64,000 nt of DNA, taken from positions 23,312,001 to 23,376,000 of the forward strand of contig OZ024762.1 in the NCBI GenBank assembly GCA_964016885.1. Direction: 5' to 3'. The translations under genes were made by a program, and so were the position numbers. The notes below the pieces were generated by a model that saw only the letters and a program-made list of their open reading frames with translations, was not told the DNA's origin and searched no databases. Of this stretch, positions 13,230 to 27,690 are shown in pieces; the first letter of the stretch is position 1, and every line of letters begins with the position of its first letter. Source of the DNA: Eledone cirrhosa (lineage: Eukaryota).

Positions 13230-13990
13230 CTGATGATAGTGATGGCTTATTGTAGAGGGGGAAGAAGTAGATTGTTTATGATGATGATGATGGCTTATTG
13301 TAGAGATGAGAGAAGAATCTAGATGATGATGATGGCTTATTGTAGAGGGGGAAGAAGTAGATTGTTTATGATGATGGTGATCGCTTATTGTAGAGATGAG
13401 AGAACAATGTAGATGATGGTGATGGCTTATTGGAGAGGGGAAAGAAGTAGATTGTTTATGATGATGGTGATGGCTTATTGTAGAGATGAGAGAAGTAGAT
13501 TGTTTATGATGATGGTGATGTCTTATTGTAGAGATGAGAGAAGAATGTAGATGATGATGATGGCTTATTGTAGAGGGGGAAGAAGTAGATTGTTTATGAT
13601 GATGGTGATGGCTTATTGTAGAGATGAGAGAAGAATCTAGATGATGATGATGGCTTATTGGAGAGGGGGAAGAAGGAGCATATTGTATATGATGATGGTG
13701 ATGACTTATTGTAGAGGGGAGAAAGGAATAGTATATAGGTGATGATGATGATGGCTTATTGTAGACGGGGAGAAGGAGTAGATTGTATATGATGATAATG
13801 ATGACTTATTGTAGAGGGGAGAAAGGAATAGTATATAGGTGATGATGATGATGGCTTATTGTAGACGGGGAGGAAAAGAATGTATATGACGAGGACGGTT
13901 TATTAGTGATGATGATACTGATGATGGTGATGGTTTATAGGTGATGATGATGATGGCTTATAAGTGATGAGGAGGATGAGGATGTGTATG
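13230..13990. repeat. ~41-45 bp purine-rich minisatellite (GATGATGGCTTATTGTAGAG...)
   Basis: Repeated core atggcttattgtagag with alternating spacers. Confidence 0.85.
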
Positions 13991-14011
13991 ATGATTGAAG
14001 TTGTTGCTGGC

Positions 14012-15383: not shown

Positions 15384-15812
15384 GTAGGAGGTGAGTTTTA
15401 TTGTAGTACAATAAAGCAATGCAGATATCGGATAAGAAGCACTCTACAGTTTGTGGGACTGGAGTATGCATAATATAAGATCAAAAGATGGTTAAAGGAG
15501 TTCAATATATTTTATTATGCGCATTTCAAAAACAAACATCATCAAACAATAATATTTGTGTTTTCATCAGATAAAACAGGAGAACATGATATGAAGGCTA
15601 AAAAAACACTTGTTGATAGTGCAGTTTTAAATCAACATATGATATGTTGATTTAAAACTGCACTATCAACAAGTGTTTTTTTAGCCTTCATATCATGTTC
15701 TCCTGTTTTATCTGATGAAAACACAAATATTATTGTTTGATGATGTTTGTTTTTGAAATGCGCATAATAAAATATATTGAACTCCTTTAACCATCTTTTG
15801 ATCTTATATTAT
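15384..15812 (-). mobile_element. Penelope-like fold-back insertion, family A (tail + 343-bp palindrome with two hammerheads)
   Basis: Arms 15470-15640 and 15642-15812; hammerhead ttttat-CTGATGA-stem II-GAAA-tgcgca-TA-ataaaa at 15706-15772 (+) and 15510-15576 (-); tail 15384-15469 shared with 51461-51553. Confidence 0.75.
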
Positions 15813-18869: not shown

Positions 18870-19209
18870 TGCGTGTATATATATATGTATGTATATATAT
18901 ATATATGTGTATATATATATATATATGTGTATATATATCTATATGTGTATATATATCTATATGTGATTATATATATATATGTGTATATATATATATGTGT
19001 ATATGTGTATATATATATGTGTATATGTGTATATATATATATATGTGTATATATATATGTGTATATATATATGTGTATATGTGTATATATATATATATGT
19101 GTGTATATGTGTATATGTGTATATATATATATATGTGTGTATATATATATATGTGTATATATATATATATGTGTATATATATATATATGTGTATATATAT
19201 ATATATGTG

Positions 19210-19254
<45 letters not shown>

Positions 19255-19337
19255 GTGTATATATATATATGTATATATATATATGTGTATATATGTATAT
19301 ATATGTATATGTATATATATGTATATGTATATATATG

Positions 19338-19400
<63 letters not shown>

Positions 19401-19825
19401 GTATATATATGTATATATATATATATGTATATATTTATATATGTATATATATATATATGTATATATATATATGTGTATATATATACATATGTATATATAT
19501 ATATGTGTATATATATATATATGTGTATATATATATATATGTGTATATATATATATATGTGTATATATATATATGTGTATATATATATATGTGTATATAT
19601 ATATATGTGTATATATATATATGTGTATATATATATATGTGTATATATATATATGTGTATATATATATATGTGTATATATATATATGTGTATATATATAT
19701 ATGTGTATATATATATGTGTATATATATATGTGTATATATATATATGTATATATATATATGTATATATATATATGTATATATATATGTATATATATATGT
19801 ATATATATATATGTATATATATATG

Positions 19826-19866
<41 letters not shown>

Positions 19867-19902
19867 GTGTATAGATATATATATGTGTATATATATATAT
19901 AT

Positions 19903-19936
<34 letters not shown>

Positions 19937-19939
19937 ATG

Positions 19940-19970
<31 letters not shown>

Positions 19971-20063
19971 GTATATATATGTATATATATGTATATATAT
20001 ATATGTATATATATGTATATATGTATATATATATGTATATATGTATATATATATGTATATATG

Positions 20064-20112
<49 letters not shown>

Positions 20113-20307
20113 GTATATATATATATGTATATATATATATATGTATATATATATATGTATATATATATATATGTATATATATATATGTATATATATATAT
20201 ATGTATATATATGTATATGTATATATATATGTATATGTATATATATATGTATATGTATGTATATGTATATATATGTATATGTATATATATGTATATGTAT
20301 ATATATG

Positions 20308-20342
<35 letters not shown>

Positions 20343-20393
20343 GTATATATATATGTGTATATATATATGTGTATATATATATGTATATATATG

Positions 20394-20424
<31 letters not shown>

Positions 20425-20441
20425 GTATATGTATATATATG

Positions 20442-20496
<55 letters not shown>

Positions 20497-20548
20497 GTAT
20501 ATATGTATATGTATATATGTATATGTATAAATATATATATAAATATAT
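18870..20548. repeat. (TA)n/(TATG) microsatellite array
   Basis: Direct inspection. Confidence 0.95.
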
Positions 20549-21483
20549 ATGTTGTTATATTTGGGGAGGGTCATATTTGCGTAATATTGCCAGAATTAAT
20601 AACAGAACACACTCACTGTTTGGTTGGTTTTCGCTTCTCGCTGTCTTTTATATATATATATCTGCGATCTAACTTACTCGGTCCTCAATGTTGCCATTGA
20701 CTGACCGGCGGTCAAAAATAAAATAATACAGATACAATATAGACAAACACATATATATATAGTTTACATAAATCTTTCGTTGCACATCTGCAACATCGTC
20801 AGTGGTGTTATATTCATTGTTCCTCCTGTTGTGTTGTATGTCTACGCCATTTTTTTGTTCAGTCCGTCTATATATTTATTTATTTGTTTGCTTGTTTGTT
20901 TATCTTATTTTATTTTGTCTTCTTTGCGCATGCGTTTGCGTGTGTGATGTGTGACTAGTGTGTATAGTGTTGTCTCTGCTGGGTGACTAGTGTGTGTTTA
21001 TGTGCTTGTGTATGTATTTATTTATCTTATTTTATTTAATTTAATTTACTTATTTATTTATTTATACTTCTCTTAGGTCAGTGTTGTTTGTTTGGGTGTT
21101 GTTGTTGTTCCACTCATTCTTTCTGTTTAGCTTTGGTCTTCTAATTTCTATTTCACTGGCCTCTTTGATTTGCCTATCTGCTGGGTCATTCCTATGTTTA
21201 GATATTATTCTAATTTCTATGTTGTCTATGTTACCGTCATGATGTTGTCTAGCATGTTCGTATAGTACTGACCCGTTTTTTTCCTTTTAGTTCCCCCCAG
21301 TGTTGGTCTATCCTTTCACCTATGCTACGAGCTGTCTCACCTATGTATGTTGTTGTCGTGTTTCTACAAGTACCCTCTGTACATCTTATGCTATAGACTA
21401 CGTTTCTAGTTTTACAGTTTATCCCCAAATATAACAATATCTGTTTCGACACACGATTTCATATAAAAAACCTCGCAAAACTA
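20549..21483 (-). mobile_element. Penelope-like element 3' fragment, family B (GIY-YIG end + pLTR + inverted tail)
   Basis: Minus-strand GIY-YIG peptide, then pLTR with hammerhead CTGACGA-t-gttgca/tgcaac-GAAA (20765-20807, stem I weak); 21422-21483 is the family tail in opposite orientation. Confidence 0.8.
21249..21425 (-). pseudogene. GIY-YIG endonuclease fragment of Penelope-like element
   Basis: [13 protein letters not shown]...C...YIGETARSIGERIDQH: VVY/YIG plus conserved R and H, with Cys residues as in PLE endonucleases. Confidence 0.85.
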
Positions 21484-22094
21484 AATATATATGTATGTAT
21501 ATATATGTATATATATATCTATGTATATATATATGTATCTATATATATATGTATCTATATATATATGTATGTATATATATATGTATGTATATATATGTAT
21601 ATATATATCTATGTATATATATATATATATGTATCTATATATATATGTATGTATATATATGTATATATATATCTATGTATCTATATATATATGTATCTAT
21701 ATATATATGTATATATATATCTATGTATATATATATGTATCTATATATCTATGTATCTATATATATATGTATCTATATATATATGTATCTATATATATAT
21801 GTATCTATATATATATGTATGTATATATATATGTATGTATATATATATGTATGTATATATATATGTATGTATATATATATGTATGTATATATATATGTAT
21901 CTATATATATATGTATGTATATATATATGTATCTATATATATATGTATGTATATATATATGTATGTAGATATATATGTATGGATATATATATGTATGGAT
22001 ATATATGTATGGATACATATATGTATGTATACATATATGTATATATATGTATGGATATATATGTATGTATATGTATATATGTATGTATATATAT

Positions 22095-25000
22095 CTATCT
22101 ATCTAAGGCGGGTAAAATTCCCGAGATCCATGGACGAGTTCTCTCCAGCGGTCTCTGTCCCTCATTATCGCTGCCATATCCTGCATCTCCAACAGACCAG
22201 TGTCTGTCCTTAGGGCATCAACATATGTTAACCTTGGTCTTCCTCTTCTAGTGTGTCCATGTAGGGGCTCCCAAAGGAGCACTGAGTGCAATGTCAACTC
22301 TGGATGTCGGTGAGCATGTCCAGCCAACCTCAGTCTTCTCTGTGTCACTTTTGAGATGACTTTTGGGATGCTCCCATACAGCTCTGAGTTTTTCATCCTC
22401 AGTGTATACTGATTAATGTTCAGAGCCTACTCAGCATTCTCGTGTAGCACCCATTCACCATCTGAGTGAGTCTCTTGGTCAGTGTCCAAGTCTCAGACCC
22501 ATACAGCAGCACAGACTCCACTACAGCAATGAAGAGGCGGATTTTCAGGTCTCTACGAAGGTCCGACTTCCACACCGATCTCAAGCTGTGACACGCCGCC
22601 CAGGCCTTGCTCTTCCTCTCAACCACATCATCTTCCGTATTCCCAATCTTTGCTCCCAAATACAGGAAGTCCTCAACCAATTCCAGCGGCTTCCCGCCTA
22701 CATTAGTGATCCCCTCTGGCTTCTCAACATTCTCTACCAGATATTTTGTTTTAGTCTCATTCATTCTCAGCCCCACACTCATCGACACAGTCTCAACCTC
22801 CCGCATCAAATCCTCTGCCTCCTTCACTGTATTTGTCACCAAAACTATGTCGTAGGCAAATTCAGCATCCGATACCTTTTTCGCCCCAACTCTCCTGCTC
22901 TGAGCCGGTGCTACAATAAAGCCAGAGTCCTGGTGTTTCTCCAGTGCAAGGCGCATACAATAGTCCACTACGATGATAAAAAGGTAGGGAGCCAATGTAT
23001 CTCCCTGGAGCACTCCAGCCAGTATCTCAAAGAACTCTGTCATCCCATCAGGTGTAATGACTTGGGCTTTGGTGTTGGTGTAGAGCAGTGATATCAGGTC
23101 CACTATCCTCTTGGGGATTCCATAAGCCTGTAAGATCTTCATCAGGCAGTAACGGTCCACAGAATGAAAGGCCTTCCTAAAGTCAATGAAAACCATGACC
23201 GCAGGAAGGCACTTTGCTCTAGCTCCCTCTAATATCCTCCTCAGCATCAGGATGTGACTGGTGGTTGATCTACCCTCTCTGAAGCCGTTCTGGTTGTCCC
23301 TGAGCTTCTTCTCCATCTCAGGATGGATCCTGTTAAGAATCATCCTGTTGAGGGTCTTTGCCACAAGTGACGTCAATGAGATCCCCCGGTAGTTGTTGGT
23401 GTTAGAGAGATCTCCCTTCTTTGGCACTGGGACGATGTTACTGATCCTCCACTGATTCGGGGAAACTCCTTTCTCCAGTGCCCCGTTACAGAACCCCAGG
23501 ATGATATCATCAAAATCACACCTCTTCATCACCTCTGATGCCACTCCATCCTCTCCATGAGCCTTGCCCTCCTTGATCTTCTTCTTGGCTCTCTGAAGCT
23601 CCTCTCTGGTGAAGGGCTCTGTCTCAACATCCAGTTCCTCAAACAGCCGCCTGATCTCCCCAGTGCTCTGGGCTGTGGAGGGTGGCTCTCCTAATAGGGT
23701 CCTAAAATGGTCTAGCCATTTCCTCTTCCTATCCTCGGGCCCCGTTCCCTGGATCTGACTCGAACACCTTTTCTTCCTCCCTGTGATCTCGTTGATGATC
23801 ATCCAGCTCTCCTTACATCCAGATCTGTCAACCGCTCTCTCCACACTTCTGATCTTCTCTATCAGTGCCTCCTCTCTGACCTCAGTGTAAGCGGTACAGA
23901 GCTCTTCCCTCATCACCTCCACAGTCTCCATCCTCTCCTCCGTAGGATCAGCATAGAATTGGTCCCTGGCAGCTTTCAGGTGTTCTCTGGCTGCACACAC
24001 TTTTGGGTTTGCACAGCTGACGTGCTTCCCTTTGTTCTTTTTCCTCGGCACCAGGGTTTCACTTGCTTTCGCCACTGCATTGGTGAAGTGCCCGTACCTC
24101 TTCGTCACACTCTCCTCAGTCCATCCAATCTCTCTCTCCTCTGACTCTCCACACAGAGCACTAAACCTGTTTCTCACTTCCACTGTGAACCTCTCCTGTA
24201 GCTTATCATCTTCCTTGAAAGCTCCCCAGTCATAGATTGTTCTCCGGGGCTGAGCCTTGCTCTTTCTTAAGCTCACGCGGACCTCACTCATAACAAGCCG
24301 GTGGTCACTACCCAGTGTACTGAAATAGCTGTATGGTTCCGTGTTCAGAACACTATTCCGCCACTTTTTCCTCACCAGAATGAAATCAATCTGGGACTTG
24401 GACAGGTGCATATCTGAGATGTAGGTCCACATCTTCCCCAGATTCTTCCTAAACCTTAGGTTGGTCGCCATCAAGTTCGCCTCCAGCAGGGTGTCTCTCA
24501 GTAGTCTTCCATTTCGGTTGGTGTTGTTATGGAAGTACCAGCAAGGATCTTCACTGCCCTCCTTACTCAGATGTGCATTGAAGTCCCCCAAAACAAGCAG
24601 GATATTGTGTGCCTGAGTGGTGTTGACAGCTCTACACACCTCCTCATGGAACTCCTCCGCATTCACATCACTGTCCCCCTCGGTTGGACTATAGGCTGAG
24701 ATGACTGTCAGTCTTGGGTTTCCATTGAAGGTCACCCTCAACACTCGCGGGGAGATAGGCATTATTTCCCTCACCAACAGATTGGTTTTTGCACTGAACA
24801 CAAAACCCACTCCTCCTACTGCAGCGTTTGTTGTGTTCTTCACTGCCGATGTAGTGATGAGCTGGCTCTTCCTCCCGATCATCACACTCCTCACGGGCTC
24901 ATCGTGTAGAATCCTGTGTTCTTGGATCGCAAGTATCTGTATACCACTCTCCTCGAACAGATGTCCCAACTCCTCTCTCTTCTCCAGCGTTCGAATAGTC

Positions 25001-25260
25001 CTCACATTCAAAGTGCCCATTTTGATGGCTCTTCTGCAGGACAAAACTGCATTCTTTATATTTGTCTCAGAGACAGCTGATCCATCATCCACTGGCCCTC
25101 TCTGTGGCTCTAAGCCAGCAGAGTCATAACGACCAGGCTGATCCTTGACAGTGTAATTAGGGGCTCTAACGCTAGTGCTGTTAGATCGACTCTCCATATT
25201 TCTTTTCAATGGCTGACAATACCTTACCGGCGCCACTCGAGTAAGGTAGTTATTTAACCC
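22095..25260 (-). mobile_element. Near-full-length RTE-clade LINE flanked by (TA)n, with (TAGA)n 3' tail
   Basis: Single APE+RT ORF; 3' end also present at 60543-60810. Confidence 0.92.
22103..25236 (-). pseudogene. LINE ORF: apurinic-like endonuclease + reverse transcriptase (lightly disabled)
   Basis: APE motifs GTLNVRT, AIQE, LGDFNA, QIDFIL, SDH; RT motifs [32 protein letters not shown]; FADD appears as FAYD and KAFD as KAFH; 1-bp frameshift near 22428 separates the 938-aa and 97-aa ORFs. Confidence 0.9.
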
Positions 25261-25770: not shown

Positions 25771-26511
25771 ATGTATATATGTATATATATATATGTATAT
25801 ATGTATATATGTATATATATATATGTATATATATGTATATGTATATATATATATATGTATATGTATATATGTATATGTATATATTTATATATATGTATAT
25901 GTATATATATATATGTATATGTATATATTTATATATATGTATATGTATATATTTATATATATGTATATGTATATATTTATATATATGTATATGTATATAT
26001 TTATATATATATGTATATGTATATATTTATATATATATGTATATGTATATATTTATATATATATGTATATGTATATATTTATATATATATGTATATGTAT
26101 ATATTTATATATATATGTATATGTATATATTTATATATATATGTATATGTATATATTTATATATATATGTATATGTATATATTTATATATATATGTATAT
26201 GTATATATTTATATATATATGTATATGTATATATTTATATATATATGTATATGTATATATTTATATATATATGTATATGTATATATTTATATATATATGT
26301 ATATGTATATATTTATATATATATGTATATGTATATATTTATATATATTTATATATATATGTATATATATGTATATATGTATATATATGTATGTATTTAT
26401 ATATATGTATGTATTTATATATATGTATGTATATATATGTATATATTTATATATATGTATGTATATATATGTATATATATATATATATATATATAGATAT
26501 ATATATATATG

Positions 26512-26706
26512 AATTAGTTTAGCGAGGTTTTTTATATGAAATCGTGTGTCGAAACAAATATTGTTATACTTGGGGAGGGTCATATTTGTGTAATATTGCC
26601 AGAATTAGATCGCAGATATAAAAGACAGCGAGAAGCGAAAACCAACCAAACAGTGAGTGTGTTCTGTTATTAATTCTGGCAATATTACACAAATATGACC
26701 CTCCCT
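26512..26706 (-). mobile_element. Penelope-like family B fold-back remnant
   Basis: Tail 26512-26572, short arm gggagggtcatatttgtgtaatattgccagaatta, inverted arm 26608-26706. Confidence 0.75.
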
Positions 26707-27354: not shown

Positions 27355-27436
27355 ATTTCGTTTCTGAATTTGTTTAGCAAGATTCTGGTGCGTGTGTTTC
27401 TTATTGGCAACATGACCCTCCCAAAGTATAACAATA
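27355..27436. mobile_element. Penelope-like family B' minimal remnant
   Basis: Tail end ttcgtttctgaatttgtttagcaagattct (as at 55382) joined to the oppositely oriented pLTR end (as at 55703-55752). Confidence 0.65.
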
Positions 27437-27690
27437 TATATGTATATATGTATATATATATATGTATATATGTATATGTATATATGTATATGTATATATA
27501 TATATGTATATATATATATGTATATATGTGTATATATATGTATATATGTGTATCTATATATATGTATATATATGTATGTATATATATGTATATATGTATA
27601 TATATGTATATATATGTATGTATATATATGTATATATATGTATATATATGTATATATATATGTATATATGTATGTATATATATATGTATG

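Follow-up and report, generated by a model that had tools for sequence, protein, structure and literature searches.

The insertion and its setting

The window analysed here, a stretch of 64,000 nucleotides of the Eledone cirrhosa genome, is AT-rich and dense in microsatellites, and its 85 complex islands total 35,706 nt. The focal island consists of 935 bp on the minus strand, enclosed by TA-rich microsatellites; with flanks of this kind on both sides, a target-site duplication, of variable length in PLEs, would be hidden in them. Repeats were compared by masked BLAST, because an exact-repeat search was swamped by the microsatellites. The features of the island and its flanks are as follows.

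18960..20548: TA/TATG microsatellite flank, the probable target; left boundary approximate
20549..21483, minus: whole insertion, read as a Penelope-like element (PLE) copy truncated on its 5' side, where it carries an inverted 3' tail; TA-rich microsatellites flank it
20552..20574, minus: ATG and first 7-8 codons of the element ORF, forming a short 3' end without tail
20767..20804, minus: minimal type-I hammerhead, core at 20802, predicted cut after 20769
20805..21061, minus: 3' UTR, or upstream part of the pseudo-LTR (pLTR), family B; 89% identical over 480 nt to the copy at 39.8 kb
21062..21286, minus: second half of the endonuclease (EN), with the two His of CCHH, the R..E helix, the LN.K.EW end and the stop codon; profile A2, E 7e-16
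21276..21288, minus: A-rich stretch containing the +1 shift of the reading frame, either a real mutation or a sequencing error
21288..21422, minus: first half of the endonuclease, with the pre-GIY Cys, VVY, the two Cys of CCHH, YIG, the catalytic R and H; Pfam PF01541; profile A2, E 7e-16; 62% identical to P0001
21422..21483, plus: inverted family 3' end with long tail, carrying codons 4-23 of the ORF start on the plus strand; 95% identical (59/62 nt) to 26576-26515
21484..22100: TA/TATG/TATC microsatellite flank

Read along the element, the order is endonuclease, stop codon, UTR, hammerhead and ORF start. An AT-rich stretch lies between the endonuclease stop (21064-21062) and the repeat, and homology to the 39.8-kb copy begins within about 60 nt of the stop codon (alignment from ~21066).

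The GIY-YIG endonuclease and its relatives

An earlier reading of the island, made from the sequence only, had placed a GIY-YIG endonuclease peptide on the minus strand, and it is indeed present in frame 21458-21252, where its score with Pfam GIY-YIG (PF01541), 22.7 bits, just passes the cut-off of 22.6. That reading had also called the start of the listed ORF a junction artefact, with a switch at ~21422 to the family tail in opposite orientation. Both points were borne out: 21422-21483 is the reverse complement of the tail, and the residues upstream of INCK are artefactual because they arise from the join with this inverted tail. The coding sequence proper begins at the Ile codon spanning 21422 and matches INCK/VNCK of its relatives, which carry a zinc-finger linker where the focal frame has these upstream residues. 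The inversion junction at 21422 has cut off the 5' side of the first half, and by this truncation only the last Cys of the PLE linker is left in the window copy.

The peptide had been said to run straight into the hammerhead-bearing family B repeat. The hammerhead lies on the minus strand at 20802 as claimed, but the peptide does not reach the repeat directly, since the endonuclease continues for 74 codons after a +1 frameshift (open frame 21286-21065, minus) and then meets the stop at 21064-21062. The two pieces align in order to P0002, residues 293-347 and 345-401, which places the frameshift within 21288-21276; P0002 had itself been found through the first piece. Pfam gave no match for the second half. 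Profile A2, an alignment of 23 relatives seeded through the first endonuclease piece and not the second, was run against all 2076 six-frame segments of the window and matched only the two endonuclease pieces, at E 7e-16 each, the next best segment having E 1.5. A profile check against PLE endonucleases had been suggested in the sequence-only reading. Searched alone against 1.84 billion representative proteins, the second half retrieved 22 at E<=0.001, and those inspected belonged to the same group; a word-index protein search with this half found none of five candidates. Read through with an X at the break, the endonuclease is 33-48% identical to the stored relatives in near-full-length matches.

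Together the pieces carry the pre-GIY Cys, CCHH and, at the catalytic positions, Y, G, R, H, E and N. CCHH is described as a hallmark of PLE endonucleases in the portions of PMC8557442 consulted. The CCHH residues, the R/H/E/N catalytic positions and the C-terminal endonuclease of the relatives, joined there to a reverse transcriptase (RT) of apparent PLE type, support the assignment of the endonuclease to the PLE type, as a nearly whole domain in two frames.

The 47 stored relatives were retrieved with endonuclease queries and hence are not an independent sample. In every one of them the endonuclease ends no more than 73 aa from the C-terminus, an RT YxDD motif lies upstream of it in 14/47, and a C-x(2-5)-CxxC zinc-finger linker is found in 34 of the 36 that have more than 30 aa upstream of the endonuclease. 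In P0018 (740 aa), DKG-like, RT2, A, B', C and thumb motifs occur in PLE order, as judged by eye against figures S1 and S7 of PMC8557442. Its AlphaFold model is poor except in the endonuclease and parts of the thumb (pLDDT 58, pTM 0.29). The modelled endonuclease residues 614-706 align to the catalytic domain of I-TevI with Z 11.2 and an rmsd of 2.1 A over 88 residues. A Foldseek search with the P0018 model returned no match at E<=0.001, with I-TevI ranked first, and VIA-align returned no RT row for it; as the model is poor in the RT, this is no argument against an RT fold. Atlas features of the relatives fall in RT, GIY-YIG and HTH_animal clusters at 0.96, and an Atlas search with the fingers region gave unnamed clusters only, at 0.91. 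Pfam RVT_1 was undetected in 7 relatives and in P0002, NCBIfam assigned 0 families to 3 proteins, and PDB sequence searches gave two weak bacterial RT rows only and nothing for P0018.

Two PLE groups are excluded by a C-terminal endonuclease with CCHH. In Naiad/Chlamys the endonuclease is N-terminal to the RT; here a stop codon and UTR follow it, and the RT of the relatives lies upstream. The Hydra clade is without CCHH and has a C-terminal CxxC/CxH, and the focal endonuclease has CCHH and no C-terminal CxxC/CxH. The focal end of the protein and the compact linker of the relatives look most like the Nematis clade when compared by eye with figures S1, S2 and S7 of PMC8557442. As far as these figures and the associated text go, that clade shares with the focal endonuclease the CCHH residues, the Cys before GIY and a short R..EA...P.LN.K.E C-terminus without the GLN extension of Neptune/Naiad (figures S2, S7), and with the relatives a compact linker (C-x4-CxxC); it is also described there as having TA-repeat targets, an inverted 5' copy and a one-sided tail, as in family B.

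The nearest relatives differ from Nematis in an RT with GGAIG at motif B' and a long A-B' spacing. GGAIG occurs in 9/9 relatives that show motif B', and P0018 and P0015, the two relatives covering the whole stretch from A to B', have distances of 126 and 129 aa, against ~59 in the Nematis row and ~114 in human TERT by hand counts on figure S1 of PMC8557442. The Nematis trait of no insertion-in-fingers between A and B' is therefore absent in these two proteins, a statement that concerns the relatives and not the element in the window. We kept the classification at the PLE level and did not assign the element to Nematis, the comparison with named clades having been made by figure alignments only.

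A separate observation on the relatives is that four of them in alignment A2 (P0018, P0015, P0004 and P0012) share a conserved insertion of ~70 aa between A and B', at the telomerase IFD position, together with GGAIG and a C-terminal endonuclease. Canonical PLEs with C-terminal endonucleases have no such fingers insertion in the parts of PMC8557442 consulted, and no description of such a lineage was found in the open-licence literature. The RT-bearing relatives may represent a PLE group with a telomerase-sized fingers insertion, of possible interest to specialists.

Family B/B' insertions, ORF start and hammerhead

Besides the focal insertion, BLAST identified the following copies of family B and its subfamily B', giving 8 insertions in the window; a weak family B trace of 29 nt at 61.3 kb was left out of the count.

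26510..26706: family B, inverted; long-tail end inverted and short end forward, with 3 nt of microhomology where they meet
27357..27437: subfamily B', inverted; long-tail end inverted, short end forward, 2-nt microhomology
39769..40300, minus: family B, non-inverted, short end, hammerhead at 40012
42298..42700, minus: subfamily B', non-inverted, short end, hammerhead at 42492
51606..51955, minus: family B, inverted; long-tail end forward, short end inverted; hammerhead core broken
52525..52830, minus: diverged family B, non-inverted, short end, hammerhead at 52751
55380..55754, plus: subfamily B', inverted; long-tail end inverted, short end forward; hammerhead core at 55560, with G at the cleavage position

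All eight are single insertions with at most one hammerhead each, and the focal one is the only one (1/8) to extend into endonuclease coding sequence. The island had been singled out for retaining coding sequence: the endonuclease is kept and is nearly whole, but it is not the sole coding sequence, as the tail is itself a PLE ORF start. Read from the conserved ATG, the 3' end holds an open 23-codon frame in 3/3 long copies that include the ATG. Variable columns of the tail fall on third positions in 13/20 cases over 11 ends (p 0.004), and in 11/18 (p 0.014) when two columns at the microsatellite boundary are left out. The tail differences between B and B' are synonymous in 6/11 cases against an expected 20-25% (p 0.034). 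This frame is the only stop-free one of the six; a shadow frame on the opposite strand reaches 5/11 synonymous differences, but contains a stop. On this sequence evidence we take the tail to be coding and to be the start of the PLE ORF. In the Pen2a_Av element of Adineta vaga, the pLTR likewise holds the first 12 aa of the ORF, or 22 aa with the tail (PMC3846280, as available to us). At ~45-59 nt, the family B tail is longer than that of Pen2a_Av or of PAc (Poseidon of Anolis carolinensis), the papers giving 30-40 nt. The endonucleases of these Penelope/Poseidon elements are without the zinc-finger linker that the relatives here have, going by the accessible parts of PMC11167929 and PMC3846280. 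In PAc the ORF starts in helix II, whereas the ATG of family B lies ~200 nt downstream of the hammerhead (PMC11167929, same limits).

The catalytic core of the focal hammerhead is complete, with an extra nucleotide (U) after A9. Helix II has 6 bp and is closed by G-C, helices I and III have 2 bp each, and helix III is part of a six-base palindrome. The motifs, once seen, were cast into a strict descriptor, which finds 7 sites in the window; in 500 shuffles of the 85 islands it found 0.002 on average. It matches the focal hammerhead and matched 0/5000 shuffles of the focal island. Helix II is paired in 36/36 cells across 6 B/B' copies, and its two compensatory changes separate B from B', so that they amount to a single contrast between subfamilies. 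In the minimum free energy fold, helix II is the only hammerhead helix to appear. Rfam gave no match in the whole window at gathering thresholds, and for the island at E<=10 it returned only microsatellite-driven miRNA noise. Within the parts consulted, PMC4209133 describes PLE hammerheads as having a helix I of 2 bp and a small helix III that is palindromic, and minimal PLE-type motifs as showing no activity as monomers and low activity as dimers. The focal motif, known here from its sequence, shares the traits listed there for PLE minimal hammerheads of the D. virilis / rotifer / shrimp variant and differs from that variant in having no bulge in helix II. By analogy, the focal hammerhead would probably cut poorly as a monomer and need dimerisation or the element's protein.

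Two short motifs upstream of the hammerhead are kept between B and B' on the minus strand (20935 and 20853; 40144 and 40063; 42592 and 42552). They resemble what we take to be NRF1 and YY1 binding sites and, as sequence motifs, could possibly form a candidate pLTR promoter.

An inverted 5' piece occurs in 5/8 insertions (21.4, 26.5, 27.4, 51.6 and 55.4 kb). Each of these five has exactly one long-tail end, which is the inverted end in four, and all three non-inverted copies end at the short site. The probability of such one-long/one-short pairing by chance is 0.13 over the 10 ends of the inverted copies or 0.025 over all 13 ends, so that its being non-random is suggestive only. Exact microhomology (3 nt, 2 nt) was resolved in 2/4 tested junctions, the focal junction not being among them.

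Origin of the insertion and neighbouring repeats

We read 20549-21483 as a single dead, 5'-truncated insertion of an endonuclease-bearing PLE with a C-terminal GIY-YIG domain and a probable Nematis/Neptune-type linker, and the family B/B' hammerhead repeats as shorter truncations of the 3' end of the same element, in which 3' UTR, hammerhead and ORF start make up the pseudo-LTR; we put the probability of this reading at about 0.9. It supports part of what the sequence-only reading had claimed, namely that the endonuclease fragment ties the hammerhead islands to PLEs and identifies the likely mobilising machinery. The tie holds for family B/B' with its 8 insertions and does not extend to the other hammerhead families, in which neither a nucleotide match to B nor a PLE coding relic was found. 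The machinery is pointed to by a PLE-type endonuclease, but the fragment itself is truncated, frameshifted and non-functional. Having no RT and no linker and being frameshifted, the focal copy is unable to mobilise anything; its endonuclease fragment is a passenger that indicates the machinery. A profile search over six-frame segments found no PLE RT in the 64-kb window, where no RT-joined copy of the family B repeat occurs either, and the likely link of family B to an RT runs through protein relatives at ~33-48% identity.

How such an insertion could form is suggested by work on other PLEs. As presented in the available part of PMC11167929, the two strands of AT-rich DNA are each cut by the RT-EN protein and extended, reverse transcription of an RNA longer than one unit being primed at two internal positions near the start of its ORF; these RT start sites lie inside the ORF, and the sequence between them is the tail. 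A TA bias, tails confined to one end and 5' copies in inverted orientation are also known in PLEs (PMC8557442, parts consulted). On this model, a full-length master elsewhere in the genome would have supplied the RT-EN protein, its RNA would have been longer than one unit, and the endonuclease would have cut TA-rich DNA. One target strand would have been primed at the short site and copied for ~870 nt into the endonuclease gene before synthesis stopped; the other would have been primed at the long site and copied for ~60 nt. The two cDNAs may then have been linked head to head through microhomology of a few bases, and the frameshift would have arisen later, unless it is a read error.

The joining step in particular could have gone differently, with the inversion produced by RNA self-priming or by template jumping on an antisense template in place of a priming event on each target strand. 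For rotifer Penelopes, inverted junctions have been attributed to self-priming at palindromes (PMC3846280, in the portion consulted), but the junctions resolved here show 2-3 nt of microhomology and no palindrome by eye. Each inverted insertion, moreover, has its ends at two different positions of the tail, which is what two start sites would give; we consider this route unlikely. It is a long shot that the parent element belongs to an unnamed PLE lineage combining a C-terminal Nematis-type endonuclease with an RT that has a telomerase-sized fingers insertion, and that the one-long/one-short rule is genomic evidence for different RT start sites on the two target strands. If true, such strand-specific start sites would explain both the tail and the head-to-head inversion.

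Family B could also be an independent non-autonomous element, retrozyme-like or SINE-like, with short masters that use PLE proteins in trans, the focal copy being an older and longer relic. The absence of endonuclease sequence from 7/8 B/B' copies fits this, and animal retrozymes have been proposed to derive from PLE pLTRs (bioRxiv 10.64898/2026.07.22.740005, as far as consulted). Tandem arrays are absent, however, the 5' ends are staggered, and the tail is kept codon by codon between B and B', which implies that the source copies were translating the ORF. We give the proposal little credence, and it is compatible with the reading as a PLE relic, the two not being mutually exclusive. The animal non-LTR retrozymes of that preprint, in the part seen, carry type-I hammerhead repeats related to PLE pLTRs, as here, but are tandem and non-coding with canonical hammerheads, whereas family B is dispersed with staggered 5' truncations. 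A non-LTR retrozyme in the strict sense, made of tandem non-coding units with a type-I hammerhead each, was rejected for the focal element, as 8/8 insertions are single and one contains endonuclease coding sequence.

Chance adjacency, in which a PLE fragment and a family B repeat inserted separately in the same AT-rich target and the endonuclease is not part of family B, was taken as a real rival since other repeat families do abut B in the window: family C lies beside B at 52.8 kb and beside B' at 55.8 kb. The AT-rich stretch that separates the stop codon from the best-conserved UTR, and the occurrence of the endonuclease-repeat join in a single copy of eight, also speak for it. A private variant nevertheless makes it highly improbable: in the ORF start, AAA stands as codon 5 at 2/2 ends of the focal insertion and at 0/9 other informative ends, two further B/B' ends that stop short of codon 5 being left out of the count. 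Shared by both ends, this variant places the endonuclease inside one insertion with family B sequence on each side. Strand and order are moreover those of a PLE 3' end, and the inverted tail abuts the coding sequence directly, as in 4 other inverted insertions.

Mobilisation of the hammerhead islands by the neighbouring APE-RT LINE (22109-25254) and not by a PLE can practically be set aside, for although the one long RT ORF of the window belongs to this LINE (RVT_1 E 9e-30), which also lies in TA-type repeats, the 3' end of the LINE has no nucleotide match to family B, 0/13 ends finish in its 3' terminus, the family B ends fall in a PLE-type ORF start with inverted tails, and RT motifs A and C of the LINE copy are altered.

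The arrangement of hammerhead, pLTR and PLE is ordinary and already described, and the anatomy of the island is that of a textbook PLE. Publications have connected hammerheads with pseudo-LTRs and PLEs in general since 2014, so that the finding illustrates something known and is no discovery; the link between hammerhead repeats and PLE pLTRs is also covered by bioRxiv 10.64898/2026.07.22.740005, in the part consulted. What is gained is that one dispersed hammerhead repeat family in this genome is now identified, with the endonuclease, the ORF start and the UTR as probes for the master element. The dense, short inverted insertions also offer an easy genome-wide test ground for the origin of PLE inversions and tails, a question that is open in the literature.

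Other hammerhead-like repeats occur in the window. Family C is present at 41115-41304, 52855-53048 and 55784-55998 (cores at 41206, 52966 and 55881), two of its copies adjoining B/B', and its hammerhead has a 4-bp helix II, a palindromic ACGU helix III and a helix I of 3-4 bp. The hammerhead-like family D, at 591 (plus) and 41464 (minus), combines a long helix II with a palindromic helix III made of AU repeats, and a long-loop hammerhead-like group is found at 15570, 15712, 41602 and 51280. By BLAST, none of the three has a nucleotide match to B, and profile A2 has no match to them in the window; a PLE origin is plausible for all of them. Large, near-perfect palindromes with hammerhead-core-like motifs on both arms form a further repeat family (15404-15790, 41581-41682 and 51205-51536), possibly representing head-to-head PLE ends of another family.

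The APE-RT LINE at 22109-25254 (minus), presumably RTE-like, is near full-length and ends in a TAGA repeat; a 3' fragment of it, 97% identical, lies at 60553-60789. A frameshift near its 3' end, together with the altered motifs A and C, makes it probably inactive. At least 11 copies of a repeat of ~190 bp, 80-93% identical, are scattered through the window (1099, 10640, 10930, 16100, 16590, 33950, 34370, 38035, 53890, 61085, 61570 and others); it is probably a SINE, and a tRNA gene search of the window called none. Long inverted repeats at 38575-38882 / 39250-39557 (308 nt, 97%) and at 45950-46790 (~200 nt, 94%, with an internal duplication) are possibly non-autonomous DNA transposons or fold-back elements. 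Minisatellite arrays occupy 7701-8084, 13228-13995, 28685-29156 and 30212-31090, with units of ~54, 90, 79 and 100 nt, respectively.
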